Shown piece by piece: positions 8,187-39,379 of a stretch of 64,000 bases of DNA. The translations under genes and the position numbers were made by a program. Position 1 is the first letter of the stretch. Each line of letters opens with the position of its first letter. The notes below the pieces were generated by a model. That model saw only the letters and a program-made list of their open reading frames with translations, did not search any database and was not told the origin of the DNA. This stretch comes from Pseudobdellovibrionaceae bacterium (GTDB taxonomy: Bacteria; Bdellovibrionota; Bdellovibrionia; Bdellovibrionales; UBA1609), in NCBI GenBank assembly GCA_023898385.1, contig CP060220.1, positions 10,370 through 74,369 of the forward strand, given 5' to 3'.

Positions 8187-9710
8187 ATGGCAGTATGGTT
8201 GAAGTATGCGGCGCCGTTGGTGGCGGCGTCAGTGGGCCTTTCGGGTTGTTCAACTTTTCGGCAAGCTAAAACGGGCAATGATGACCGAGAGGTTGAAATT
8301 CGCCATGAGTTTTATCAGCAAAACCCGCAGGCCGAAGAGCAAGAAGTCACGGGGCAGGCCGCATCAATTCCCTTAGTGGTAAATCCAAAGGTCAACCAAT
8401 GGATCAATTATTTTCAAGGTCGAGGTCGACCTCATATGGAGCGGTACCTAAGGCGCTCCAGTCGCTATTTGCCAAAAATGAAATCCGTGTTGCGAGAGCG
8501 GGGCCTTCCTGAGGAATTAGTCTATGTGCCTTTAATTGAATCGGGATTTAACCCAGTAGCACACAGTCACGCCAGTGCCGTGGGTTACTGGCAGTTTATT
8601 AGAAGTACTGGCAAGCGATACAACCTTCGAATCGATGGCTATGTGGACGAGCGACGGGATTTTGTGATGTCCACCGAGGCCGCAGCCAATTATTTTTCAG
8701 CCCTTTACAGTCTTTTCGGAGATTGGTACTTGGCCCTGGCCGCCTATAACACTGGTGAAAATCGCGTTAAACGAGCCACCATGCGCTATCACACACGAGA
8801 CTTCTGGGAGCTGGCAGAGGGAAGGAGGCTTCCCCGCGAAACGCGCAATTATGTGCCTAAGTTTATCGCTGCGGCGTTAATTCATAGAGAGCCGCAACGC
8901 TATGGATTCACTGATATCGACTATCAAGAGCCCCTAGCCTATGACCGCTTTGAAGTGACAAAGCCTGTGAGCTTGATCAAGTTGGCAAAAAATATCGATG
9001 TTCCTTATAAAACATTAAAGGCGTTAAATCCGAGCTTTCGAACAGATTATGTTCCTATTTATGGATCTCGACCGCAGCTGATTCGAGTGCCTACGGGGCA
9101 GCGAGATTTAGCTCTCGCGCAAATAGATAACAGCTACAGCAAAAAGCCGTCTTATGTATCTCGTGATTATTTTTACTATCGCGTACGTCGCGGAGATACC
9201 CTTTCTGAAATTGCCCAACGCCATCGTACGAGGATATCCACACTTCGACGGCTTAACGATTTGGGTCGGCGCTCCTTTCTTAGAGTGGGACAAAAGCTGA
9301 AGGTGCCGGTAGCCGGTGGAGTACAGGTGGCAGCGAACGATTCTGGTGATGAAGCACCGGTCAAGGAGACGGCGCAAAGGGCCGCGAGTATTGAAACCTC
9401 CTCTGACGGAACTCACCGGGTGCGACGAGGCGAGAATCTCACGTTGATTGCCAGAAAATATGGAATGAGTGTGAGTGAATTAAGAAGCCTTAATGGTTTA
9501 GGGCGCCGGTCGATGCTTAGGGTGGGGCAGAAATTGAAGGTTTCAGGAGAAGGCTCATCCTCACTGCGAGTTCACGTGGTTCGACGGGGTGAAAATCTGT
9601 CTTTGATTGCTCAGAAGTACGGCACATCGGTACGAGCTTTGGCGCAAGTTAACTCGCTTGAGAATCGCTCACGCATTTTCGCGGGCAAAAAGTTATATAT
9701 TCCTCATTAA
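8187..9710 (+). CDS. mltD: Membrane-bound lytic murein transglycosylase D (lipoprotein, SLT domain plus 3 LysM)
   Basis: Lipobox LSGC, LIESGF, AVGYWQFI, ALAAYNTGE, ETRNYVPK; three LysM repeats (YRVRRGDTL, HRVRRGENL, HVVRRGENL). Confidence 0.92.
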   Translation: MAVWLKYAAPLVAASVGLSGCSTFRQAKTGNDDREVEIRHEFYQQNPQAEEQEVTGQAASIPLVVNPKVNQWINYFQGRGRPHMERYLRRSSRYLPKMKSVLRERGLPEELVYVPLIESGFNPVAHSHASAVGYWQFIRSTGKRYNLRIDGYVDERRDFVMSTEAAANYFSALYSLFGDWYLALAAYNTGENRVKRATMRYHTRDFWELAEGRRLPRETRNYVPKFIAAALIHREPQRYGFTDIDYQEPLAYDRFEVTKPVSLIKLAKNIDVPYKTLKALNPSFRTDYVPIYGSRPQLIRVPTGQRDLALAQIDNSYSKKPSYVSRDYFYYRVRRGDTLSEIAQRHRTRISTLRRLNDLGRRSFLRVGQKLKVPVAGGVQVAANDSGDEAPVKETAQRAASIETSSDGTHRVRRGENLTLIARKYGMSVSELRSLNGLGRRSMLRVGQKLKVSGEGSSSLRVHVVRRGENLSLIAQKYGTSVRALAQVNSLENRSRIFAGKKLYIPH

Positions 9711-9801: not shown

Positions 9802-9887
9802 CCTTTGGCAGCTGGCTGGCATGGCATAAGCCGAAGCCCCTGTAGCTTTGCGTCCCGTGGTTTCCGCACGGTTTGCCCCTACAAAGG
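9802..9887 (-). ncRNA. c-di-GMP-I (GEMM) riboswitch aptamer
   Basis: Minus strand: CCUUUG UAGGGGCAAACCGUGCGGAAACCACGGGACGCAAAGCUACAGGGGCUUCGGCUUAUGCCAUGCCAGCCAGCUGC CAAAGG. It has GGCAAACC, a GAAA tetraloop in P2, GGGACGCAAAGC and a perfect P1 (CCUUUG/CAAAGG). G at the position equivalent to Vc2 G20 indicates c-di-GMP rather than cGAMP type. Confidence 0.93.
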
Positions 9888-10210: not shown

Positions 10211-10246
10211 TTGGGTTCCAGGTCCTAAACCTGATCACACAGCGTC
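10211..10246 (-). repeat. REP-like inverted repeat, left of RAYT
   Basis: ttgggttccaggtcctaaacctgatcacacagcgtc is the reverse complement of 11048-11083 at 34/36 positions; internal cagg/cctg hairpin. Confidence 0.9.
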
Positions 10247-10273
10247 AATGTCCACCCGATGCCATTTTGATTT

Positions 10274-10912
10274 TTAAATTATTTCACCGTCGAATAGCAC
10301 GGAGCTGTTTGTTAGCTTGTCTTTTTTGCTTTTAAAGTACTGCCGTTTTAACGCCCACCGGACGGCTTCATTTTGTTGATCGGAGGGCTTTTGGTTCAGC
10401 CACGACAACGTATCGTCTATGTTGTCAAAAAGTGTGTCGTCGAAGGCTAGTGGGATGAGCAACTTGGAGCGACCAAGCAGACCATGAAGAGTGCTGTAAG
10501 GATAATCTTCAACTCTTTCAGCCATACAAGCCTGAACCGGATTTCTATAGTTATACTTGTAGGCATTGAGGTAGTAGCTGGGATGATCTAAAATCGTCTT
10601 ATAGTGTCGGCCGGCAAATGTCTGATTAATACGATTCCCTGCTTGAGTTAGCCTCAAACTCACATTTTTTAGGAGCCGATACATGCACTGACTGATGTTG
10701 GCATCCGGTGTGGACGCTAGCAGGTGAAAATGGTTATTCATAAGAACAAAACTGTGGATTAGCAAATTATGATTAATCACTGTTAGGTATAACTCTTCAC
10801 TAAAAACATCCCATACCTGTGGCATGGGCAAGTTAAACCACTCGCGATTAATACAGCGGCCACTGATATTGTAAGGATACTTCGACTGGAGAATAGCTCT
10901 TGCTCGGGGCAT
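10274..10912 (-). CDS. REP-associated tyrosine transposase (RAYT, Y1 HUH family)
   Basis: HUH motif NHFHLL, catalytic-Tyr region YNYRNPV, YPYST; flanked by inverted REP-like repeats. Start taken at MPRARAIL. Confidence 0.88.
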   Translation of the reverse strand: MPRARAILQSKYPYNISGRCINREWFNLPMPQVWDVFSEELYLTVINHNLLIHSFVLMNNHFHLLASTPDANISQCMYRLLKNVSLRLTQAGNRINQTFAGRHYKTILDHPSYYLNAYKYNYRNPVQACMAERVEDYPYSTLHGLLGRSKLLIPLAFDDTLFDNIDDTLSWLNQKPSDQQNEAVRWALKRQYFKSKKDKLTNSSVLFDGEII

Positions 10913-11047
10913 GGATGGAACTTGCTGCAAATGCATGCCATTTTTTTCTGTCAGCTGTGTGTGTATCTGGCACTTGTAGTGTCCGAATTACATTCCACAG
11001 GGTCCGGTAACCAGGCCAATCTATTTGGGGTTAAATGGGCGGACTCC

Positions 11048-11083
11048 GACGCTATGTGACCAGGTTTAGGACCTGGAACCCAA
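11048..11083 (+). repeat. REP-like inverted repeat, right of RAYT
   Basis: gacgctatgtgaccaggtttaggacctggaacccaa; partner of 10211-10246. Confidence 0.9.
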
Positions 11084-11103
11084 AAGTTCCCCGTGCTTAC
11101 AAG

Positions 11104-11230
11104 CCCAAAACCTGGCGAGCTAGTTTCATGAAAGTCTGGGCCTCTATGCTTTCGGGATAACTTTCTACCACAGGAATGCCGGCTTCGCCGGTGAGTCCAA
11201 TGTTGGGGTTAAATGGAATTTGCGCCAACT
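11104..11230 (-). pseudogene. Duplicated 3' fragment of mrp/apbC (direct repeat of 12973-13099)
   Basis: 127 bp with 5 mismatches. Encodes LAQIPFNPNIGLTGEAGIPVVESYPESIEAQTFMKLARQVLG, then L-stop just beyond the repeat. Confidence 0.92.
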
Positions 11231-11696
11231 ACCAAAAAAACGTGAGTTTCAAAGCATTAGCTGAATCCCCAACTGGATGTAAAAAAGGTACGCCATAAAA
11301 TGAGAATGACGGTAGGGTCGTCTCAAACAGGGGGATGGACGCATTGCACCCCTCTCCGCGGAGGTGAAAGTAAACATAACTCTTTTTGCCCGCTTCAGGA
11401 TCGTAGAGAATTCCACCATAGTCGTCCACTGCACAGTCGTATAAATAGGGTTCGTCAACATAGCCACGATACGACCGAGAAAGGTGAAATCCAGTTTGGT
11501 GCCATTCGGAATCATAATTAACCCATTCTAGCTCGAACCGTATGTAGAGAGAATTATTTGCTTCGGAGTACGTAATTTCTCGTGTAAATCTACCTTCCGC
11601 ATCTTTTGCTATGTTAAGTTGAGCTTCTACATAATCAACGTTGGCCAATACTGGTTTGGACAAGAGTAGTATGGCATATATTACGATATTCTTCAT
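11229..11696 (-). CDS. Secreted hypothetical protein
   Basis: 155 aa, signal peptide, purine-rich RBS; the stop codon abuts the duplicated mrp fragment. Confidence 0.7.
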   Translation of the reverse strand: MKNIVIYAILLLSKPVLANVDYVEAQLNIAKDAEGRFTREITYSEANNSLYIRFELEWVNYDSEWHQTGFHLSRSYRGYVDEPYLYDCAVDDYGGILYDPEAGKKSYVYFHLRGEGCNASIPLFETTLPSFSFYGVPFLHPVGDSANALKLTFFW

Positions 11697-11945
11697 AACT
11701 TGTTACCCCCCTTTAAATTTCCAATCTACTAGTGGAATGTCTTTAGAGTCAAATTTTGCTATTTAGAGCCAATGGGACCGGCCTCCAAATCCAGTGAACT
11801 AAGACCAGACGCATCCAGACCTTGGTCTCGGTCACAGATCATCACATCGACATTCACGTTCATCGCACAAAACAGTGGCTGCGACATCAAAAGCGCTTTG
11901 AACGGTGAATTGAGATAATCATAATGGGATCCGGCCTGCAATGTT

Positions 11946-12449
11946 TTACCGAGTTAACAGGTGTTTTGGGATTTTTCTGTAAATGTTGTTTAAGTGAGTT
12001 TTTACAGTAGATGGCGCGATATTCAGGTGTTCGCCAATTTCCCGGTTCGAAAAGCCTTTGAGGATCATCGCTGAGATTTCGAACTCTCTCGGTGTGATCA
12101 AAAAGCTTTTAAGGGCTTCAAGGCGGGCCTCTAAGATCTCATCTTGAGGAGTCAACACAATTACATATTGATCGTCACGATTGATCATCAGGACGTCACA
12201 CCATTGACCATGCATTTGAATATTGCGGCCATAATTGTTGCTACAGGAGCCGGAAAATTTTGAAAGGCAATCTTCATTGCAAGAGACTCCAAGCTGATCA
12301 TTACAAATTGCAACACAGGCCGGGTTTTGGAATTTCACTGGACCACCGGGGGCTTTCATGCACAGACCAATGGATGTTGATTTATCTAAGGAACATTCTG
12401 TTTCTTGGAAATTTCCACCCCGGGGGTCGATGTTATTTTCGACAGACAT
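11946..12449 (-). CDS. LuxR/GerE-type HTH regulator with Cys-rich N-terminal domain
   Basis: C-terminal ITPREFEISAMILKGFSNREIGEHLNIAPSTVKTHLNNIYRK. Confidence 0.85.
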   Translation of the reverse strand: MSVENNIDPRGGNFQETECSLDKSTSIGLCMKAPGGPVKFQNPACVAICNDQLGVSCNEDCLSKFSGSCSNNYGRNIQMHGQWCDVLMINRDDQYVIVLTPQDEILEARLEALKSFLITPREFEISAMILKGFSNREIGEHLNIAPSTVKTHLNNIYRKIPKHLLTR

Positions 12450-12495
12450 GTGGCATAGGTATCTGAATCAAACAGATAAAACAAGGGAGGATGCC

Positions 12496-12954
12496 ATGGG
12501 GTCATTCATCAAAACCGCAAAACTGTTTTCTTTCTGGCTGCCGTTGATTGTAACAAGTGCAAATGCTGCTGAATGCTTTAACCTAATGGAGTTAGGTCGT
12601 CAGACGCCGTCCTATGAACTTTGTGTAAAAGCGACGGGATCAATGAATCCAGGAGGGTGGAAGCCAGCCAATGTTGTTTTGAAGTTGCAAAGCAATAACT
12701 CCATCTTATCTGAATCCAAAGCTGCACTTATCTTCTCGCAGGCGACTGGAGAGAACCTCTCTTTTAATAAAATAGTGCTTACGGAGGAACCCGTAGGTAA
12801 CGACACCTTGATCAAAAAAGTAAATCGTTTTGTTATTCAAGAGATGAACCCTATAGAATTTAAGGTTTCATTTGGCGATCAGCAAAATACAGACGGCCTT
12901 GTGAGTATGGGCGAACAGCTCTATGTCTACAAAAGGGTGGGCGCTGAAAACTAG
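12496..12954 (+). CDS. Secreted hypothetical protein
   Basis: AAGGGAGG RBS before ATG 12496; signal peptide ending ANA-A; divergent from the LuxR gene. Confidence 0.7.
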   Translation: MGSFIKTAKLFSFWLPLIVTSANAAECFNLMELGRQTPSYELCVKATGSMNPGGWKPANVVLKLQSNNSILSESKAALIFSQATGENLSFNKIVLTEEPVGNDTLIKKVNRFVIQEMNPIEFKVSFGDQQNTDGLVSMGEQLYVYKRVGAEN

Positions 12955-12958
12955 CCGA

Positions 12959-12977
12959 TTTAGGACCTGGAACCCAA
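12959..12977 (+). repeat. Third (partial) REP copy, forming the last codons of mrp
   Basis: tttaggacctggaacccaa is identical to 11065-11083. Confidence 0.85.
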
Positions 12978-13745
12978 TACCTGGCGAGCTAGTTTCATGA
13001 AAGCCTGGGCCTCTATGCTTTCGGGGTAACTTTCTACCACGGGCATGCCGGCTTCGCCGGTGAGTCCAATGTTGGGGTTAAATGGAATTTGCGCCAACTT
13101 CTCAATGCCTTTGCTATCAAGGTATTGATCGAGTTCACCTTTTGGAAACAAGGCTATGGGGTCGCCACCGCCGGGGGGTTGAAAATAGGCCATGTTCTCT
13201 ACCACGCCGAGATTTTTTACATTTGTTTTTTCAAACATATCGATGGATTTTTTAGCATCGATGAGTGCGATATTTTGCGGTGTGCAGACGGTGACAGCTC
13301 CATCCACCGGAACTTTTTGGGCCACAGTGAGAGCGATGTCGCCGGTGCCTGGAGGCAAATCAATGATGAGAATGTCCAAATCCCCCCAGTCCACATCGCG
13401 AAAAAACTGGTCCATGGCTTTAAACAGCATGGGTCCCCGCCAAATCACAGCGGAGTCTTCATCTACCAGAAAGCCCATGCTCATCAGCTTCACTCCATGC
13501 CTTACCAAAGGCTGGATTTTTTGATTCTCATCCACCACGGGACGTTGATGAAGGGCCCCAAATAGCCGCGGCATGCTAGGACCATAAAGATCAGCATCCA
13601 GCAGCCCCACCTTTTGTCCTAATTTTTTTAATCCCAGGGCCAAATTGGCGGCCACAGTGCTTTTGCCCACGCCACCCTTGCCTGAGCCAACGGCAATAAT
13701 GCGCTTGATACCAGCAATGGGAGTTTGTTGATCAAATGGGTTCAT
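12960..13745 (-). CDS. mrp: Mrp/ApbC (NBP35 family) Fe-S carrier ATPase
   Basis: GSGKGGVGKST, DADLYGPS, WRGPM, DLPPGTGD, GVVENM. Confidence 0.92.
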   Translation of the reverse strand: MNPFDQQTPIAGIKRIIAVGSGKGGVGKSTVAANLALGLKKLGQKVGLLDADLYGPSMPRLFGALHQRPVVDENQKIQPLVRHGVKLMSMGFLVDEDSAVIWRGPMLFKAMDQFFRDVDWGDLDILIIDLPPGTGDIALTVAQKVPVDGAVTVCTPQNIALIDAKKSIDMFEKTNVKNLGVVENMAYFQPPGGGDPIALFPKGELDQYLDSKGIEKLAQIPFNPNIGLTGEAGMPVVESYPESIEAQAFMKLARQVLGSRS

Positions 13746-34400: not shown

Positions 34401-34910
34401 GACTTAGTGGGTGATCAAATCAACTCATTTGCTATGAAAGAAGAATCCCTTTTGGGTTTCAAAGTAAAAAACAACCTTCAGCTTGCTGAAAAAAGGCTCG
34501 AAAGCGGGCGCAACGAAGGTGCCAACAGGTATTTGGTTTTGGCCCTGCGCGATTCTTGGCGTCTTGTTGGGGATTTAGAGCAGCCGCTCAGTGTGGTGGC
34601 ATTGAATGCTGTTGAAGCCTATTTGTTGCTTGCTGCTACGAAAAATTATGAAAGGTCGGGCGACGGTCACAAGTTGGCAGGCCAATTAACGTCGACGATT
34701 CAGGAGGCGTTAGTGAAGGTGCAAAAAACTCAACAGCAGCCCATTTGGGCCTTTAGGCAAACGAAGCTGGCTTTGTTGTGGGCAAAATACGAAGGGCGCA
34801 ATTTAGACCAAGAGCTGACATTGCCGCAGGCGGTGTTTTTAAAGCAACAAAGCCCTGAACGTTGGCAACAGCTCAAAGAATTATCTCAGTTGTTAGCGGC
34901 TCCACTTTGA
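31413..34910 (+). CDS. Large exported protein: TolB-like propeller plus TPR/helical region
   Basis: Signal peptide; PD40-like repeats (DPHVSSTGDKIVF, FPVWVGEHQVAF) followed by long helical repeats. Confidence 0.75.
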   Translation: MFRFQKQLGLFLVFVLATVALNCSASAETEAERHTRLLLRLLPLNKITVGPYDNYQGSFVKGGQQLLFSRKVDLAPRIYKLDLNTGKETPLLDLAFDSKDPHVSSTGDKIVFVYFKNRARGQVCVKSIDSADAESCLDHSTKEPAFPVWVGEHQVAFILRDLAKRKSEVVLWDLKAQNSRVVAQGHISSLTWSESQQKILYTSDEGIVVSDVSGVSKYDLKLDLPGMPGFLSAGEDGYVYFSHYLSDTNNDQIVDANDNAVVFRLPLVEAKGGSRLVFPEPLTSVEYNCSFPQAARQSLLVTCAFEGTLDIYELPHAGMVPSSWDHQILENARKTSRTYAERLFLTQSLIFRNGTFSAEKSLQQLMSNHLLAEDGSATRYYLKRLIELYPKTSSLYALLDVYVQGLQFKKKETVDPLSRAFSREVSQFLTKLGAIKGVNKQKKLVHAVFDLWSGNGTRAAAVLKDQETLKVSSTIDGYLLFQLIETYSGRRGAVARGVDSGYLALITTSDLPEESQLFYAHRLLTYIQKSEPDLKKRKTLVARFQKKCEPGSSVETLMQAEVVSLNIVLTLGLQDKRKVYNDLDKLMSQTRDNYYLRKALYVRAIATLVEADEYDIAGYVATNWLKYTKPVDTEFSYAKTQYIYSVFDEAYSSYGSQNYLLASNHFLAGLRLTDDLEAHFGYIQSLLKLKKRQEIDKQYDNLKKRSFIGDNITYVETLLELLDGEERGTLESKEVRRAVDRLNGLTVENFSPVLHLTIGALYVWLLDSESKGLDFSQEDLDKAHKHLMLAFDLGRNNQRLRASALIDLGLLHQRVRNYSLSARFFADRKKFGFTSDEERLAFSWLYSRTLYLSNNASGAAAELAELLSTQPKAEGDGYLFERLAFYQQASEQCKQSIANYDKAFAKLLKLADDQHEMKMHLGRGVCYFREEKKKPAKEDFLKVVEISKTLVSEKPTGDRPLPFRPERQQLLALGYLAQLSQGAESAGYLEERAQLLDLVGDQINSFAMKEESLLGFKVKNNLQLAEKRLESGRNEGANRYLVLALRDSWRLVGDLEQPLSVVALNAVEAYLLLAATKNYERSGDGHKLAGQLTSTIQEALVKVQKTQQQPIWAFRQTKLALLWAKYEGRNLDQELTLPQAVFLKQQSPERWQQLKELSQLLAAPL

Positions 34911-34977
34911 ATCCACTGTTCAAGCGCGGCTTGCTCACTGGTGCTGAGATTTACAACGCCATTGATGGGGGTGTTGA
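34830..34977 (+). repeat. Left 148-bp direct repeat bounding island 2
   Basis: Matches 39232-39379 with 3 mismatches. Confidence 0.93.
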
Positions 34978-35183
34978 AGCGAAATATACTCGCAGGAATT
35001 GCCAAAATCTAAATGGCCATGAACTGTTTCGGTCCGACTTTTCTGATTCTGGAGTTAACAATTTTGCTCTTGGTTTATGAAAGCACCTTTCGACTCTGCT
35101 GTTGGGAGCGTTCAGCTCGGGTCTTTTGGCCTGGCTTGATCTAAGAATTTGATATATTTGTTCAGAGAGGTTCACACTCAACT

Positions 35184-35211
35184 GTTAAGTCAACCGGTCG
35201 GTCTACTTAAC
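35184..35211. promoter_or_regulatory. Imperfect 28-bp palindrome resembling a TetR-family operator
   Basis: gttaagtcaaccggtcggtctacttaac is self-complementary at 22/28 positions. Confidence 0.4.
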
Positions 35212-35273
35212 TCCCCGTTATCGTTTGTGTTTTTTTTTTGGTTGCAAACAATTCTAATAACCTTTGCGCCATC

Positions 35274-36492
35274 TGTAGACTGCGGTTGATGGTGTCAGTG
35301 ACTTAGGCTGCCTTCATGGTTGTCTCACTTTGGGTATCGGCAGCCAATAATTTTTCTTTAGCCCCGGGTTTTAGCACTTGAGGGTACTGCAAGAGGTACT
35401 CGTTAGCAGACTTCCATCCGAGAGCTTTTCGGAGCCGCCAAGAGTTTTTCCATTGGCAATACTGTTCGAGGTATTCATTAAGCTGTTCGATGTTTTGCGG
35501 TCTTGCTCGATGGAACAACTCTTCATCGTCCATGCGGTGTGAACGCTCTACAAGCCCGTTAAGCTCTTTTTCTCCTGGAGGTATGAGTCTGTGCCTGATG
35601 CCGTGTTCATCGCATAGTTCATCCAAAATATGCGGCAAAGGATCGTCGATTCGTGAGACAAATTTATTCGTAAATTCCACGCCATTGTCTGTCTGAGTGC
35701 TGGTTATCCAAAAAGGCACTGCTCTTAGTAGTTCAATCATAAAGCGTTCAGTCTCCCAGTGACCATAACCTTCATAGGCCCTCTTAAACTCCCACCTCGA
35801 TGCGTGATCAACGAAGTTATAGACGTAACACTTCTTGCCGTTTTCAAGGAGCGTTGTTTGCCAATTAACATCGATCTGCGTGTGCACTCCTGGCAACTCT
35901 ACCTTCACAACGGTGGTGTGGCTAGACGCCGGCTTTGCACGCCTCTTAGAGCCCACAAGGCCCGCGTTCTTCAAAAACCGATGGATACGATACAGTGACA
36001 GCTCCACTCCAAGGTAACGTTTGAGGTGGGCTTGTATCACCTCAGCGCCCCAACCACAGAGTTTGCGCCATCGCCTGATGTGATAAGCCGTCCAGCCAGT
36101 GATGTCCTGTGCTTGTCGCCCTGGTGCCTTTCTTGGCGTTAGTTTTCTGTGTCCACCCTCGAGGTAACTCTTTCTCCAGCGATAAACAGTACGGCCAGAT
36201 TTACCGATTTCCAGACCCACAAGTTCATAGTCTAAGTCCGAAAGGTTGCCAGAATGTTCCCTTTTAGCTAGCTCTATCAACGCAAGTAGTCTCAAAGTGA
36301 GAATCTTATCTTTTTTTCGAAATTTCTTGGCTTCTCTTCGCAGTTTATCTAAATTAAGACGCATTGCTAACTCCTTGTTCTTCTTGGTGTTTCTTAATTT
36401 GAGACTTTAAATTTCACCAAGAAGACTTGGAGTTTTTCAAGTAAAATCAACGTTTCCCGCCATTTCACTGACAAAATCAACCGAAGCCTAAA
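35274..36492 (-). mobile_element. IS481-family insertion sequence (1219 bp)
   Basis: 28-bp imperfect IRs (tgtagactgcggttgatggtgtcagtga 35274-35301; tcactgacaaaatcaaccgaagcctaaa 36465-36492); direct repeat acctttgcgccatc at 35260-35273 and 36493-36506. Confidence 0.9.
35303..36364 (-). CDS. IS481-family DDE transposase
   Basis: N-terminal HTH (RTVYRWRKSY); D (TQIDV), D (QTDNGVEF), E (NGLVERSHR). Confidence 0.9.
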   Translation of the reverse strand: MRLNLDKLRREAKKFRKKDKILTLRLLALIELAKREHSGNLSDLDYELVGLEIGKSGRTVYRWRKSYLEGGHRKLTPRKAPGRQAQDITGWTAYHIRRWRKLCGWGAEVIQAHLKRYLGVELSLYRIHRFLKNAGLVGSKRRAKPASSHTTVVKVELPGVHTQIDVNWQTTLLENGKKCYVYNFVDHASRWEFKRAYEGYGHWETERFMIELLRAVPFWITSTQTDNGVEFTNKFVSRIDDPLPHILDELCDEHGIRHRLIPPGEKELNGLVERSHRMDDEELFHRARPQNIEQLNEYLEQYCQWKNSWRLRKALGWKSANEYLLQYPQVLKPGAKEKLLAADTQSETTMKAA

Positions 36493-36510
36493 ACCTTTGC
36501 GCCATCATCC

Positions 36511-36537
36511 TCAAGATTTTGCTAGACGATCCGATAG
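36511..36537 (+). promoter_or_regulatory. FliA/sigma28-like promoter
   Basis: TCAA-N15-TCCGATAG, 37 bp upstream of ATG 36574. Confidence 0.55.
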
Positions 36538-36573
36538 ATAGTGAAGGCTTTTTCCATTTTAGAGGACAATAGA

Positions 36574-38361
36574 ATGCGAGCAGCTACAACCACATTGATA
36601 CAGGCGACCTTGCGGGCATTGACCGGCCTGACAGCTCTCCCTCTGCTGTTTGGCTGTCAACTTGCTAACAACGAAATCAATGGCAGCATTAAGTCCCCGC
36701 CTCAGACCCCCGGAAGCCCAAGTCCAGTTGTTCCTCAATTAAGCTACTCCGGGGTACCTGATTACTTTGTTGCAGGTCAAAATATTGCATCTTTAACACC
36801 AACAACAAACGTTGTTAGCGGAGGGATCTATAGTGTTTCCCCGCCATTGCCTGCAGGCCTAGTATTAAATGAAGTCTCCGGTGCAATCTCAGGCGCTCCA
36901 ACGAATGCATTTTCGCCAACAACATTCTCTCTCACATTGACTCACGATGGACAAACAGTAACTGACTCTATCGAGTTGGAAGCAGGCCTTTTATTTTTAG
37001 TCAATACTGTCAACGATACCAGCGACATTAACCCAGGCGACGAAATTTGCGGTGATTTTTCTGGTGACTGTTCCGTCCGTGCAGCATTTGAGGAGGGGGC
37101 GGCGCTTTCTGATATTTTGGTTGTGGTCGATGTTCCCGCGGGCAACTACGACTTGCCATCCAATCCTCTCACCATTAGCTCTCGAGTGATAATGAATGGT
37201 GCCGGACCCAGCCAAACGATCTTCGACGCCAACCCTGATGCGTCTCCCATTGAACATGTCTTCATTATTGATGCCGTGGCGGAAGCCACCCTTAGAGGTT
37301 TTGCCGCGGTCAATGCCAATATAGTCAATGGCACTAACTTCTTAGGAATATTATATTTGGGATATGGAGGGGGCATCTATAGTCAAGCCGACACTCTGAA
37401 TTTAGAAAACTGCGATGTCTCTGGACATCGTGACACGCCAGGTACTCTAACGACAACCATGGGCTTAGGAATTTATTCTGCTGGATCATATCTTAACGTT
37501 GATAACTGCACAATTGACGACAATGTGTCGTCGTTGTCCGCAGGAGTCGGGTTCGCAAATGGAGGAGCAGGCATTGCTCATTTCGGAATCACCCACATCA
37601 GAAACTCTGTGATCTCGAACAACACCATGCTCAATGCCAACGACTCGACAGGGGGAGGTTTATGGTTAGATGCGGCAACAATTGAGGACTCCCAGATATT
37701 TGGTAATCGGGCAAGACTACATGGCGCTGGGATTAATGCCTCTAGTTTAACTTTGATTAATTCGCAAGTTTTTCTCAATGGCGGCAGTGGCATCGTGTTT
37801 GGGGCTGGCATACGATTAGGGAGTGGCGCCGTAAAAAATAGTGCTGTCTATGATAATTTTGGTGGCGATGCTGAAATTTACGGGGTCGATGGAACCATCG
37901 AGGTCAATAACTCCACCGTTTTTTCAAACAATACGCCCTTTGCCATAATTTCTGATGATGCCCATTTTCAAATACTTCACAGCACATTGGTTACCGATGT
38001 GAGCGTTGCACTAAACACCTCTGGGACAGGTTCTGGTACACATACACTGGGCCATTCCATTGTACATGCTATTTCAGGGGACAGTTGTGGCAATGCTTCA
38101 AGAGTCACGTCTACAGGTTATAACATTATTAACGATTTGACCTGCAACTTTTCTAGTGTTGGCGATGTGGAAAATATTGATCCTGAAGTGGGAGTCATTG
38201 CCAATAACGGCGGACCCACGTCCACCATGGCCATCAGTGCCACTAGCCCGGCTCGCAATGCCATTCCAGCTAGTAATTGCAACTTGTCGGTTGATCAAAG
38301 AGGCGAACCTCGTCCGATGGGAGGCGCATGCGACATTGGTGCGTTTGAATACGCTGAGTAG
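36574..38361 (+). CDS. Surface lipoprotein: putative Ig domain, CSLREA-type domain, beta-helix, choice-of-anchor-Q-like C-terminus
   Basis: Lipobox LFGC; PPLPAGLVLNEVSGAISGAP; VNTVNDTSD...GDCSVRAAFEE; DQRGEPRPMGGACDIGAFE. Confidence 0.8.
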   Translation: MRAATTTLIQATLRALTGLTALPLLFGCQLANNEINGSIKSPPQTPGSPSPVVPQLSYSGVPDYFVAGQNIASLTPTTNVVSGGIYSVSPPLPAGLVLNEVSGAISGAPTNAFSPTTFSLTLTHDGQTVTDSIELEAGLLFLVNTVNDTSDINPGDEICGDFSGDCSVRAAFEEGAALSDILVVVDVPAGNYDLPSNPLTISSRVIMNGAGPSQTIFDANPDASPIEHVFIIDAVAEATLRGFAAVNANIVNGTNFLGILYLGYGGGIYSQADTLNLENCDVSGHRDTPGTLTTTMGLGIYSAGSYLNVDNCTIDDNVSSLSAGVGFANGGAGIAHFGITHIRNSVISNNTMLNANDSTGGGLWLDAATIEDSQIFGNRARLHGAGINASSLTLINSQVFLNGGSGIVFGAGIRLGSGAVKNSAVYDNFGGDAEIYGVDGTIEVNNSTVFSNNTPFAIISDDAHFQILHSTLVTDVSVALNTSGTGSGTHTLGHSIVHAISGDSCGNASRVTSTGYNIINDLTCNFSSVGDVENIDPEVGVIANNGGPTSTMAISATSPARNAIPASNCNLSVDQRGEPRPMGGACDIGAFEYAE

Positions 38362-38562
38362 ATCCACGACTGACTTTTTAAACAGCTTGGCACCGCACTG
38401 TCGCCGCAAAAGGAAACCAGGTGCCGTGGTGCCCCCTGGCGGGCGATCTTCGTTCCGCTATTATGGGTTATTTTAAAAAGCCAAGTAGTTTAAATTATTT
38501 TAATATTTCTATTTACTGGAGGACATCTTTTGGCGTTTCCGAGCCTGTTCTCTAGCTCGAAG

Positions 38563-38591
38563 TTGACATATATGTGCAATGTATGTATAAT
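38563..38591 (+). promoter_or_regulatory. Consensus sigma70 promoter for a probably leaderless TA transcript
   Basis: TTGACA-N17-TATAAT, with ATG 7 nt after the -10 box; palindrome ACATATATGT (38566-38575) overlaps the -35. Confidence 0.85.
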
Positions 38592-38597
38592 GTAATA

Positions 38598-38834
38598 ATG
38601 CCGACGATCTTTGTTATTGGCCCATTTAAGATCATCATAAATACAAAAGATCACCGGCCAGCCCATGTGCACTGTGTTGGACCAGGTGTTTTTGTGATTG
38701 TTGAAATTGTGACCCAAGAAGTGATTCGTAATAAAGGGGTTTCTCCAAAGGATATTAAACGGCTGCAATTGTTTATTGAAGGAAACAAGGATGTCTTGAT
38801 GAACGAATGGAGGCATTACCATGAAGAAGAATAA
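38598..38834 (+). CDS. DUF4160-like putative toxin
   Basis: MPTIFVIGPFKIII..KDHRPAHVH...W pattern. Confidence 0.75.
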   Translation: MPTIFVIGPFKIIINTKDHRPAHVHCVGPGVFVIVEIVTQEVIRNKGVSPKDIKRLQLFIEGNKDVLMNEWRHYHEEE

Positions 38835-39063
38835 AGAATCTAAAAGTCTTTTAACAGATAAAGACATGAAGCCTGAAAATGTGAAAGCCAACATCACCAT
38901 TCGCATTTCTGGTGAGTTGTTAAACGCTTACCGCAAAGAGGCCGAAAAGCTTGGAATTGGTTATCAGACTTTGATGCAAATTAAGCTTAAAGAAGGACTG
39001 GATCATTCTCTTGAACGGCGGCTTGAAAAACTTGAAAAGGCCTTGAAAACAAAGGCTGGCTAA
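38821..39063 (+). CDS. BrnA/CopG-like ribbon-helix-helix antitoxin
   Basis: NITIRISGELLNAYRKEAEKLGIGYQTLMQIKL; overlaps the toxin stop. Confidence 0.8.
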   Translation: MKKNKESKSLLTDKDMKPENVKANITIRISGELLNAYRKEAEKLGIGYQTLMQIKLKEGLDHSLERRLEKLEKALKTKAG

Positions 39064-39172
39064 TGCCTTCGGCCCGACTTATCTTATTCGGGACTTAACA
39101 CTTTTGTTCTAGACTTATCGTGGCAGCTCTCAACTCTACCCGTGGGAGCGTTCAGCTAGGGTTTTGGCTTTC

Positions 39173-39241
39173 TTACTTAATTTCATCGAGCGATCTCCTT
39201 AAGCGTTTCTTGCTTGTTTCGATCTCCTTCTGCGGTGTTTT
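39173..39241 (-). pseudogene. C-terminal remnant of a RelE/Gp49-like toxin
   Basis: Reads KTPQKEIETSKKRLRRSLDEIK*; truncated at the island direct repeat. Confidence 0.4.
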
Positions 39242-39379
39242 TAAAGCAACAAAGCCCTGAGCGTTGGCAAGAGCTCAAAGAATTATCTCAGTTGTTAGCG
39301 GCTCCACTTTGAATCCACTGTTCAAGCGCGGCTTGCTCACTGGTGCTGAGATTTACAACGCCATTGATGTGGGTGTTGA
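39232..39379 (+). repeat. Right 148-bp direct repeat bounding island 2
   Basis: Matches 34830-34977 with 3 mismatches. Confidence 0.93.

Follow-up and report, generated by a model that had tools for sequence, protein, structure and literature searches.

A block of three orphan genes lies behind mrp, between two direct copies of a segment that joins the 3' end of mrp to a REP sequence, and is accompanied by no site-specific recombinase. The island as a whole is best explained by an insertion that duplicated a long stretch of its target and left the cargo between the two copies, an account to which a probability of roughly 0.6 is assigned. The insert would then probably be horizontally acquired DNA of 1.73 kb, whose three orphan products are a LuxR-type regulator and two secreted-looking proteins. 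On balance, the island is also likely to be a further case of a known, mechanistically unexplained class, the “insertion with long target duplication”.

Anatomy of the mrp island

All positions given here are those of the window, the whole stretch of 64,000 nucleotides that was analyzed. Its source is the 3.33-Mb, metagenome-derived genome of an uncultured, Bdellovibrio-like predator from sludge. The mrp/apbC gene (12960-13745, minus strand) encodes a NUBPL-type iron-sulfur cluster carrier ATPase of 261 aa (Pfam PF10609, E 1.5e-92). An earlier note on this DNA had described a duplication of 127 bp of the end of mrp with five mismatches, and the alignment of 11104-11230 with 12973-13099 confirmed it as a direct repeat of 127 nt (96% identity), found in exactly two copies in the genome and therefore locus-specific. 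The mismatches are located at 11109, 11135, 11157, 11172, and 11175, next to an identical core of 55 nt (11176-11230). In the mrp frame three of them are synonymous and two nonsynonymous, and their clustering (5/5 within the stop-proximal 72 nt) was not significant (p = 0.058).

According to the repeat alignment and the translation, the 3' end in use by mrp is copy B (12973-13099, minus strand). Copy A (11104-11230, minus strand) is the displaced 3' end, a start-less pseudo-fragment with an in-frame TAG at the junction, and carries the Ile of the EAGIP motif, as do most of 80 relatives, whereas the copy in use has Met. The whole duplicated segment comprises 166 nt in copy A (11065-11230) and 141 nt in copy B (12959-13099), and its outer 19 nt are the sole REP sequence in the repeat. 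Copy A contains 25 private nucleotides in the alignment (11084-11108, minus strand), bounded by CCCAA(A/T)A direct repeats, and the displaced stop codon of mrp is found within them (11097-11099, in-frame ...KLARQVLGL*). The working gene ends in ...CAG GTA TTG GGT TCC AGG TCC TAA, where the last five codons and the stop codon are REP sequence. The claim that mrp ends inside a REP was thus borne out, and the island is an example of a REP providing the final codons of an essential-type gene. Both flanking features are intact, mrp being completed by copy B and the inverted repeat of the RAYT element by copy A. The G+C content of the island is approximately 0.41-0.44, compared with 0.48-0.50 in the flanks.

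The RAYT gene (10274-10936, minus strand) lies outside the insert and adjoins copy A. The RAYT-like Y1 HUH transposase that it encodes has 220 aa, with the NHFHLL and YxxxNPV motifs visible, and was matched by NCBIfam NF047646 REP_Tyr_transpos (E 1.9e-12, 47 bits; cut-off 80) and by Pfam Y1_Tnp (E 5e-4, 20.6 bits; cut-off 23). Three paralogues with 35-51% identity are present elsewhere in the genome. The left inverted repeat of the element (10211-10257, minus strand, 47 nt) is 87% complementary to the right one (11037-11083, plus strand), for which DNA folding predicted the hairpin CCAGGT-TTAGG-ACCTGG, and which belongs to the duplicated segment from 11065 outward. Both have the same 19-mer, TTTAGGACCTGGAACCCAA, as their outer end; it occurs at 10211-10229 (minus strand), at 11065-11083 (plus strand), and once more at 12959-12977 (plus strand), against a chance expectation of 0.05 matches.

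The same REP had been said to abut each copy of the mrp end, and this was correct only in part. The 19-mer is shared; however, in copy A it is separated from the mrp repeat by 25 nt (11084-11108), and the sequence 5' of it differs, being the hairpin-forming CCAGG in copy A and AGCCGA, a different REP subtype, in copy B. REP copy B (12953-12977, plus strand) is 25 nt long and consists of AGCCGA followed by the 19-mer; read on the minus strand, it supplies mrp with its stop and the five codons before it, and it shows an exact match of 23 nt to a REP at genome positions 1318553-1318575. It lacks the 5' hairpin arm, and no hairpin was found in it by DNA folding. The REP end is dispersed in the genome in 21-33 copies, depending on the mismatches allowed, mostly as inverted pairs approximately 200 nt apart; these doublets form long hairpins. 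A second RAYT locus in the genome has the arrangement REP-cargo-REP-RAYT. The left breakpoint of the mrp island is the stem-loop junction (5' side) of the REP hairpin, and the right end of the duplication falls directly after the CT of CCAACT.

The insert measures 1,728 nt and, as had been proposed, holds a LuxR-type regulator and two secreted-looking hypothetical proteins. The first ORF (155 aa, 11229-11696, minus strand) has a stop codon formed across the junction with copy A. The regulator (167 aa, 11946-12449, minus strand) combines a Cys-rich N-terminal part with a C-terminal GerE/LuxR HTH (Pfam GerE, E 9e-14), and the third ORF, an orphan (152 aa, 12496-12954, plus strand), is divergent from it across a gap of 46 nt. 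The N-termini of the 155-aa and 152-aa proteins are hydrophobic and were judged signal-peptide-like by eye; neither protein had a match in Pfam or NCBIfam. Word-indexed protein searches with the cargo proteins returned self-matches only, and a close relative of the regulator was sought in 5.8 billion proteins with none found. A full HMMER search with the 155-aa ORF detected a small family of proteins of about 155 aa (32 matches, best identity 48%) located in unrelated gene contexts. The single-sequence AlphaFold models of the cargo were poor (pLDDT 45 and 42), and the cargo was present in none of the RNA runs in which it was sought.

Absence of recombinases and presence in independent metagenomes

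None of the three ORFs of the insert was identified as a mobility gene by Pfam or NCBIfam, and ORF and family scans of the island detected no pseudogene fragments. The genome contains nine tyrosine and two serine recombinases (PF00589, PF00239), all of them more than 680 kb away, and an IS481-type transposase is encoded 23 kb away within another islet of the window. The description of an integrase-less island adjoining a RAYT therefore stood.

In relatives the gene order PpdK-GlyS-ORF131-Mrp-(variable)-MltD-Slt70 represents a conserved synteny, in which the mltD-mrp interval varies from 84 nt to more than 8 kb and in no case contains the cargo; family-level relatives have mrp next to mltD, with neither the cargo nor a second mrp end. 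An empty site was searched for with Mrp in one genome per species (GTDB), in 40 relatives and in JGI/ENA metagenome contigs. The nearest genome or metagenome contig had an Mrp identity no closer than approximately 70-75%; as no congeneric genome was available, no empty site was found and the pre-insertion state is a reconstruction.

An integrase-bearing element at mrp in relatives, which the earlier note had regarded as a finding that would overturn its proposal, was absent from the mrp loci of 80 relatives, where neither an integrase homologue nor a second mrp end was detected. This result bears on a reading in which the island is what is left of an integrase-borne element equipped with an mrp 3' end of its own, the integrase having been lost by internal deletion. 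Elements such as e14 at icd give rise to imperfect repeats of a gene 3' end, mostly with synonymous differences, and the mrp repeats resemble them in that three of five differences are synonymous; moreover, the ancestral Ile is found in the displaced copy A, and Met in the copy in use. Against these points, no recombinase exists in or beside the island or within 680 kb, and 1.7 kb is too small for remnants, of which the scans gave no sign as pseudogene fragments. In addition, the roughly 15 similar islets of the genome described below would all need to have lost an integrase yet kept both repeats, several of which cover the end of a convergent second gene that would be superfluous for an attP copy. 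The remnant reading is accordingly considered improbable.

The presence of the island was analyzed in public metagenomes. Contigs from runs of four independent studies contained the structure with 0 differences, and contigs with the same sequence were obtained from four further low-depth runs, making a total of eight sludge/wastewater metagenomes. The recovery of the same sequence in all eight indicates that it is not an assembly artefact but real DNA, a point on which the earlier proposal also depended. The depth of the island was comparable to that of its flanks in three studies (88.5 vs 84.3/80.9; 7.4 vs 5.8/8.7; 9.1 vs 9.4/8.3), and the shared 55-nt node reached about twice the island/flank depth. 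In contigs of the independent studies the private variants of each copy were joined to their own unique flank, and no joint bypassing the island was observed in the contigs from the eight runs.

An artefact would consist of strain variants of the mrp end stitched in series, or of a small circle threaded into the chromosome. It is made conceivable by the metagenomic origin of the genome, by the 4% difference between the repeats, and by a k=31 graph that permits an empty site plus a 1.87-kb circle. Contigs at k=31 end inside the 55-nt identical core, where the two copies cannot be phased, so that short reads alone cannot separate integration from the latter combination; the arguments for integration are the equal depth and the single-contig assembly only. 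Nevertheless, the linkage of variants to flanks with 0 differences, the match of island and flank depth, and the lack of an island-skipping joint all count against an artefact, and it is implausible that a 1.87-kb replicon with no replication gene would be kept at exactly one copy per chromosome in every sample. This explanation was therefore given very little weight.

Recurrent islets and the origin of the island

About 15-17 other integrase-less islets were found in the genome, each with a unique direct repeat of 37-231 nt. The repeats duplicate the junction of two genes, leaving both neighbours intact, and several also cover the end of a second, convergent gene. Repeat identity ranges from 87 to 100%, which points to events of different ages. 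The cargo includes DUF4143 ATPases, AbiE and HigB-type toxin-antitoxin pairs, and secreted proteins, and many islets hold a single DUF4143 ATPase-nuclease or toxin-antitoxin pair. No common motif was identified at the cargo ends of the six islets compared, so they do not form one element family. In most islets REP and RAYT sequences are absent nearby, at least 12 of them having neither; since the same architecture occurs at some 15-17 loci, mostly without REP or RAYT, a RAYT is unnecessary for such islands. An empty site was also sought for the folA islet, but the loci fetched from relatives were short and their synteny was not conserved.

In the favoured duplication-insertion account, the locus before the event would have read mltD and, in the opposite orientation to it, a c-di-GMP RNA, the RAYT element and, 13 nt further on, mrp. 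A target of approximately 166 bp would have been duplicated, running from the loop of the hairpin formed by the REP at the outer end of the RAYT right inverted repeat and reaching 127 nt into mrp, and the cargo would have been placed between the two target copies. With the cargo in this position neither neighbour is truncated: the RAYT element has its end in copy A, and mrp in copy B. A later deletion of 25 nt between the CCCAA(A/T)A repeats in copy B would have fused mrp to the REP, changing its end from ...GL* to ...GSRS*, and the five substitutions would have accumulated after the duplication. No site-specific recombinase would be involved, and the RAYT would be a resident of the target site and not the agent. 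This order of events and its mechanism are inferred from the present arrangement.

The favoured route would be driven by a break or by recombination, and could take two forms. In the first, a circularized DNA already bearing the REP-mrp-end segment, for instance one that originated from a repeat-flanked islet of a related strain, would have entered by Campbell-type (ends-in) homologous integration. In the second, a break at the REP hairpin would have been repaired with the target copied twice. Copy B, with its other REP subtype and its 25-nt difference, fits the Campbell-type form; if the REP of copy B is a plain duplicate, its AGCCGA subtype match has to be coincidental (roughly p 0.01), which counts against the duplication account. 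A Ku gene was sought in the genome and found absent, making end-joining by Ku/LigD unlikely. ComEC-like and DprA genes are present in the genome; these competence genes are also found in most control genomes and are thus uninformative.

The earlier note had proposed, as a hypothesis, that the island arose by a capture initiated by RAYT and REP. The REP-joined duplication of the mrp end beside a RAYT was confirmed, but the agency of the RAYT was unsupported, most of the similar islets having neither REP nor RAYT. Under this alternative, a RAYT bound to the right REP would cut single-stranded DNA twice, once at the hairpin and once within mrp, about 150 nt away, and strand transfer or priming from the nicks would duplicate the intervening segment and take up foreign DNA. 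The positions of the two duplication ends, one at the junction of stem and loop on the 5' side of the REP hairpin and the other after the CT, agree with it, as do the second RAYT locus with its REP-cargo-REP-RAYT arrangement and the REPs at the repeats of three islets, where about 0.35 would be expected (post hoc p about 0.005); these REPs represent three families, and a separate RAYT paralogue belongs to each. TnpA_REP of Escherichia coli cleaves at CT dinucleotides and carries out strand transfer in vitro (PMC3333891), which lends the alternative further support; with a BIME present, its cleavage sites were distributed over the whole mapped region of more than 400 nt (PMC3333891).

The REP enrichment test is, however, post hoc, and the CT match is a coincidence of two bases. 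At least 12 like islets have no REP or RAYT nearby, and REP copy B belongs to another subtype and lacks the hairpin arm that a RAYT would bind. Likewise, the mrp island does not have hairpin ends at both borders in combination with an unduplicated target, as IS200/IS605-type elements do: no REP or hairpin was found at the left end of the cargo (11231 onward), and a duplication of 141/166 nt is present. Y1 HUH transposition, as known from IS200/IS605, produces no target duplication, which is also counted against a RAYT capture. Capture by the RAYT was therefore regarded as unlikely.

Counting against the duplication-insertion account, the REP excess at the islets and the breakpoint at the stem-loop junction are a hint of a REP-specific step. 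REP-linked breakage, by the RAYT or by host hairpin nucleases, could have started the event at mrp, and REPs may be favoured sites of breakage. At the dnaJ-dnaK islet the repeat begins approximately 30 nt from the apex of a REPIN hairpin, an offset that makes it no exact parallel to the loop-junction breakpoint of the mrp island. A broader proposal, that RAYT-nicked REP hairpins are entry points for long-target-duplication insertions, with the right REP and the distal CT in mrp used here, is more doubtful still than capture at this locus. If true, it would add gene capture to the debated functions of RAYTs and would be the first mechanism for an insertion class unexplained since 2000.

Comparison with known systems

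Insertions with long target duplication have been described with repeats of 46-423 bp and no mobility genes (Nobusato, 2000, Gene 259:99; Furuta, 2010, PMC2853133), and their repeats often span start or stop codons, so that the target gene remains intact (PMC2853133). The mrp island agrees with this class in its insert of less than 20 kb, in repeats longer than 30 bp (141/166 nt) that are locus-specific, and in the stop codon spanned. In the published cases the cargo includes restriction-modification or Type IV restriction genes, whereas a regulator and two secreted-looking orphans are found here, and those cases were proven by the empty site of a sister strain, while the pre-insertion state of the mrp island was reconstructed. 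They also differ in that the REP lies within the duplicated target at mrp and one copy lacks 25 nt.

The island would thus extend a rarely cited route of gene gain, known from few groups, mostly Proteobacteria, beyond restriction-modification genes and to ordinary cargo in a Bdellovibrio-like predator. Its larger value lies in the whole genome, with about 15 such events of different ages, three of them at REPs. Since many public activated-sludge data sets contain the organism in abundance and its islets are numerous, long-read population data could make the mechanism approachable.

The RAYT element resembles the REPtron/REPIN systems, in which a Y1 HUH gene lies between inverted REPs (Nunvar, 2010; Bertels and Rainey, 2011, PMC3116915; Ton-Hoang, 2012, PMC3333891), and, as in those systems, the REP end is dispersed here about 30 times, mostly as inverted doublets. 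Neither cargo capture nor duplication of flanking genes has been reported for known RAYTs, and the mrp locus departs from a REPtron by a third REP fragment in the same orientation, 1.9 kb away beyond the cargo.

The working gene end recalls other elements as well. In phage 21 and e14 at icd, and in the CIMEs derived from ICESt elements at fda, a repeated gene 3' end keeps the gene working, and the CIMEs, like the mrp island, have no integrase. For elements that replace gene ends, a tyrosine recombinase has to act at a short core; in contrast to those at icd and fda, no tyrosine recombinase was found at the mrp island or at the mrp site of relatives. Finally, the minimal mobile elements of Neisseria, reportedly described by Saunders and Snyder in 2002, are said to be recombinase-free cargo in a fixed slot between conserved genes. 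Unlike the mrp island, they lack long duplications at their flanks, where double crossover brings about their exchange. The mrp island is like them in that the content of the mltD-mrp slot varies among relatives.

Anatomy of the mrp locus

A repeat search of the window, followed by alignment, bore out the earlier note's report of a duplicated mrp end: a two-copy direct repeat of 127 nt with 96% identity was found, consisting of a displaced end on the RAYT side (copy A, 11104-11230) and the end in use by mrp (copy B, 12973-13099). The copies differ by five mismatches (11109, 11135, 11157, 11172, and 11175), three of which are synonymous in the mrp frame. No third copy was detected in the whole 3.33-Mb genome by BLAST with the island as query. 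From left to right, the locus contains an MltD-like LysM/SLT transglycosylase gene (plus strand, ending at 9710), a c-di-GMP-I riboswitch aptamer (9804-9887, minus strand; Rfam, 62.5 bits), the element of a putative REP-associated tyrosine transposase or RAYT (10211-11083; a 220-aa Y1 HUH protein, minus strand, between 47-nt inverted repeats), 25 nt, copy A, ORF155, a regulator gene, ORF152, a REP fragment at the right end of the island, and mrp (12960-13745, minus strand; Pfam NUBPL/ParA, E 1.5e-92). The riboswitch is the immediate downstream neighbour of the RAYT element, in the same orientation, and no gene follows it; a c-di-GMP-I RNA on one side and mrp on the other thus enclose both the RAYT and the island.

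The G+C content of the cargo was 0.41-0.44, compared with 0.48-0.50 in the flanks. ORF155 (minus strand), between copy A and the regulator, ends in a TAG stop created across the junction. The 167-aa regulator (11946-12449, minus strand) combines a GerE/LuxR HTH (E 9e-14) with an unusual Cys-rich N-terminal part of ~100 aa containing ten cysteines, for which family profile scans returned no family match. To its right, ORF152 (plus strand) is divergent from the regulator across a 46-nt gap, and the pairing of the regulator with this orphan, secreted-looking protein suggests a self-contained sensor-target module. All three cargo proteins were orphans in a search of 5.8 billion proteins; full HMMER returned 32 hits for ORF155, at up to 48% identity, which make up a small family of ~155-aa proteins, and the two members closest to ORF155 lie in unrelated gene contexts.

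The 19-mer TTTAGGACCTGGAACCCAA was present as three exact matches in the window (10211-10229, minus strand; 11065-11083 and 12959-12977, plus strand), compared with 0.05 matches expected. The 3' end of the working mrp reads ...CAG GTA TTG GGT TCC AGG TCC TAA, and therefore its last five codons and stop are REP sequence, in agreement with the earlier note. The same note held that each copy abuts the same REP, which is correct for copy B but not for copy A, where 25 extra nt (11084-11108) intervene; moreover, the identity of the two REPs is limited to their outer 19 nt. Just inside the 19-mer, the copy A REP continues with CCAGG, and in the DNA fold this stretch and ACCTGG base-pair into the REP hairpin; the copy B REP continues with AGCCGA, the signature of another subtype within the same REP family. 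The latter REP, a 23-nt exact match to that at genome 1318553-1318575, gave no hairpin in the DNA fold. The 25 nt beside copy A contain their own mrp-type ending (...KLARQVLGL*, stop at 11097-11099) and have a CCCAA(A/T)A direct repeat at either end; copy B matches copy A with this stretch removed. At the Ile position of the EAGIP motif, pseudo-copy A agrees with most of the 80 relatives and the working copy has Met. Since relatives show no fixed length or sequence in the Mrp tail beyond ...LA.., a 25-nt change at this position is tolerable.

The island in public DNA and in relatives

In public data, the stretch was present in twenty DNA runs sampled from activated sludge, wastewater and related material, and contigs of eight runs from seven studies were compared with the island. 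In these contigs, the variants private to copy A were contiguous with the RAYT side and the variants private to copy B with the cargo side, at zero differences, and the depth of island and flanks was equal in the three best-covered studies (88.5 vs. 84.3/80.9, 7.4 vs. 5.8/8.7, and 9.1 vs. 9.4/8.3). The identical 55-nt core formed its own node at about twice the island or flank depth. No joints skipping the island were observed among the contigs of the eight runs. On this evidence, the island is fixed in a very uniform population. The 31-mer contigs break in the identical core and, taken alone, are compatible with the integrated form or with a 1.87-kb circle beside an empty site; integration is favoured by the equal depth in all samples and by the assembly into a single contig. 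An assembly artefact, considered in the earlier note, is nearly excluded by these contigs, the equal depth and the lack of skipping joints.

Judged by its Mrp, the genome is placed among Pseudobdellovibrionaceae/Bdellovibrionales. The closest Mrp among GTDB species representatives and metagenome contigs reached only about 70-75% amino-acid identity, and therefore neither a congeneric genome nor an empty site was found in those collections. Gene order at family level is conserved as PpdK-GlyS-ORF131-Mrp-[gap]-MltD-Slt70, and the Mrp-MltD gap of relatives ranges from 84 nt to >8 kb, a spread that makes this interval a variable slot. The mrp loci of 80 relatives contained no homologues of the cargo or the RAYT. 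An island brought in by an integrase that was later lost is very unlikely, since neither a homologue of any recombinase of this genome nor a second mrp 3' end was present in these 80 loci, and the larger integrase-bearing element contemplated by the earlier note was not seen there. Ku was not found in the genome, so classical end-joining capture is also unlikely.

Similar islets across the genome and the role of REPs

Self-comparison of the genome revealed about 15-17 small islets of 1-6 kb, each between direct repeats (37-231 nt, 87-100% identity) that are confined to that one locus. No tyrosine or serine recombinases were found inside them. What is duplicated is the boundary between two adjacent genes, often convergent overlapping 3' ends; the left gene is completed by one copy and the right gene by the other. 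The cargo includes DUF4143 ATPases (genome 152154-154217, a lone DUF4143/AAA_14 ATPase with a 170-nt repeat; 3010206-3011633 at the folA end, a lone DUF4143 ATPase with an Mrr-like nuclease domain and a 94-nt repeat; 361853-363490, 1370787-1372382, 1487500-1489455, and 2947047-2953237), AbiEii pairs (1243698-1245303 and, between dnaJ and dnaK, 146623-148152), a Gp49/HigB-type toxin with HTH (1454959-1457824), a DUF6036 nucleotidyltransferase (2081632-2083016), a Phd-type antitoxin (2335113-2336909, 231-nt repeat) and secreted proteins. A further islet lies at genome 2747223-2752583, and a second one in the window at 34830-39379 (148-nt repeat). No motif common to the cargo ends was found, and most loci had no REP within reach.

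About 14 AAA_14/DUF4143 ATPase genes were counted in the genome (for example, 152567-153721, 362187-363332, 1371013-1372167, 1487667-1488992, 2749478-2750404, 2947237-2948175, and 3010342-3011517), one of them with an Mrr-like nuclease domain. In at least six cases, such a gene is the only or principal cargo of a segment with unique long direct repeats at both ends, as if this gene family were spreading through long-target-duplication insertion. In the islet that follows an HNH-endonuclease gene (genome 1356140-1361882), the repeat is split into an 88-nt block from the HNH gene end and a 35-nt block from the end of the convergent gene, with unrelated sequence between the blocks in both copies; the displaced HNH fragment lies between two 47-nt direct repeats that contain REP sequence.

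The genome carries four RAYT paralogues with 35-51% identity (the others at 1588073-1588750, 1974069-1974752, and 3055833-3056426) and at least three REP families, TTTAGGACCTGGWACCC (~30 copies), GCAACGCAAAAAGGAAAGGGATACC (~45) and GTACCTGCTTCCTTTTGTGGCGAC (~27), mostly as inverted doublets (REPINs) whose inner arms are alike within a doublet and different between doublets. A second RAYT locus (genome 1972034-1975208) consists of a family 3 REP, a DUF4143 ATPase, a REP, a RAYT paralogue and a REP doublet, its outer REP end being directly abutted by the TAG stop of an upstream 586-aa gene. At genome 146484-148152, an AbiEi/AbiEii-like pair is preceded by a near-perfect REPIN hairpin of 235 nt (about -142 kcal/mol in the DNA fold) and succeeded by a 94-nt duplicate of the REPIN right arm.

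The earlier note attributed the mrp island to capture initiated by the RAYT and its REPs. The left breakpoint is exactly the 5' stem-loop junction of the REP hairpin in the DNA fold, and the right one comes after CT; E. coli TnpA_REP cleaves single-stranded DNA at CT and is able to transfer strands, and with BIME present its cleavage sites were mapped across >400 nt around BIME (PMC3333891). The order REP-DUF4143 gene-REP-RAYT at the second RAYT locus also favours this explanation, as do the three islets with a REP at or in the repeat: mrp (family 1), dnaJ-dnaK AbiE, where the duplicated target is one arm of the 235-nt family 3 REPIN, and HNH, with a family 2 REP 7 nt from the second repeat copy. 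When targets of 40-200 nt were placed over intergenic DNA in a simulation, the chance of REP contact was 1.4-2.8% per target, or about 0.35 expected for 16 islets against the three observed (p ~0.005, post hoc and for a loosely defined set). However, at least 12 similar islets have no REP, the left end of the mrp cargo has none, and the copy B REP lacks the hairpin arm that the RAYT would bind. Y1 transposition is not known to produce a target duplication. RAYT/REP-driven capture as stated is therefore unsupported; it is retained as a less likely alternative.

A probable insertion with long target duplication

The mrp island probably belongs to an already known, little-studied kind of insertion, named "insertion with long target duplication" by the Kobayashi laboratory, whose mechanism is unexplained (PMC2853133); Nobusato et al. 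(2000) is the work cited there for this class. The duplicated target would extend from 11065, inside the right inverted repeat of the RAYT, to 11230, 127 nt into mrp, so that the RAYT element would stay complete through copy A and mrp through copy B. The REP at copy B would be inverted-repeat sequence that chanced to fall in the duplicated stretch, and the 25-nt loss an ordinary slippage deletion between 5-7-nt repeats, which would have shifted the mrp stop into the REP. Plain in-situ duplication does not fit the copy B REP, which runs six nt further as another REP subtype. Because REP subtype, 25-nt difference and mostly synonymous substitutions combine, the distal part of copy B would be better explained as coming from another allele. 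In that case, the islet may have arrived as DNA already bearing its own REP-mrp-end segment and entered by homologous, Campbell-type integration. In-situ duplication and Campbell-type entry are both candidate routes, and the RAYT is needed in neither.

The interest lies mainly in the genome-wide pattern, with many events of graded age, recurrent cargo of solo DUF4143 ATPase-nucleases and toxin-antitoxin genes, and a possible REP preference. Together with the abundance of the host organism in public sludge data, this pattern could render the mechanism of long-target-duplication insertion testable.

The described class has the same architecture as the islets of this genome. The life cycle proposed for such islets by Furuta et al. 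includes a re-infection step (PMC2853133), to which Campbell-type entry of the mrp islet would correspond.
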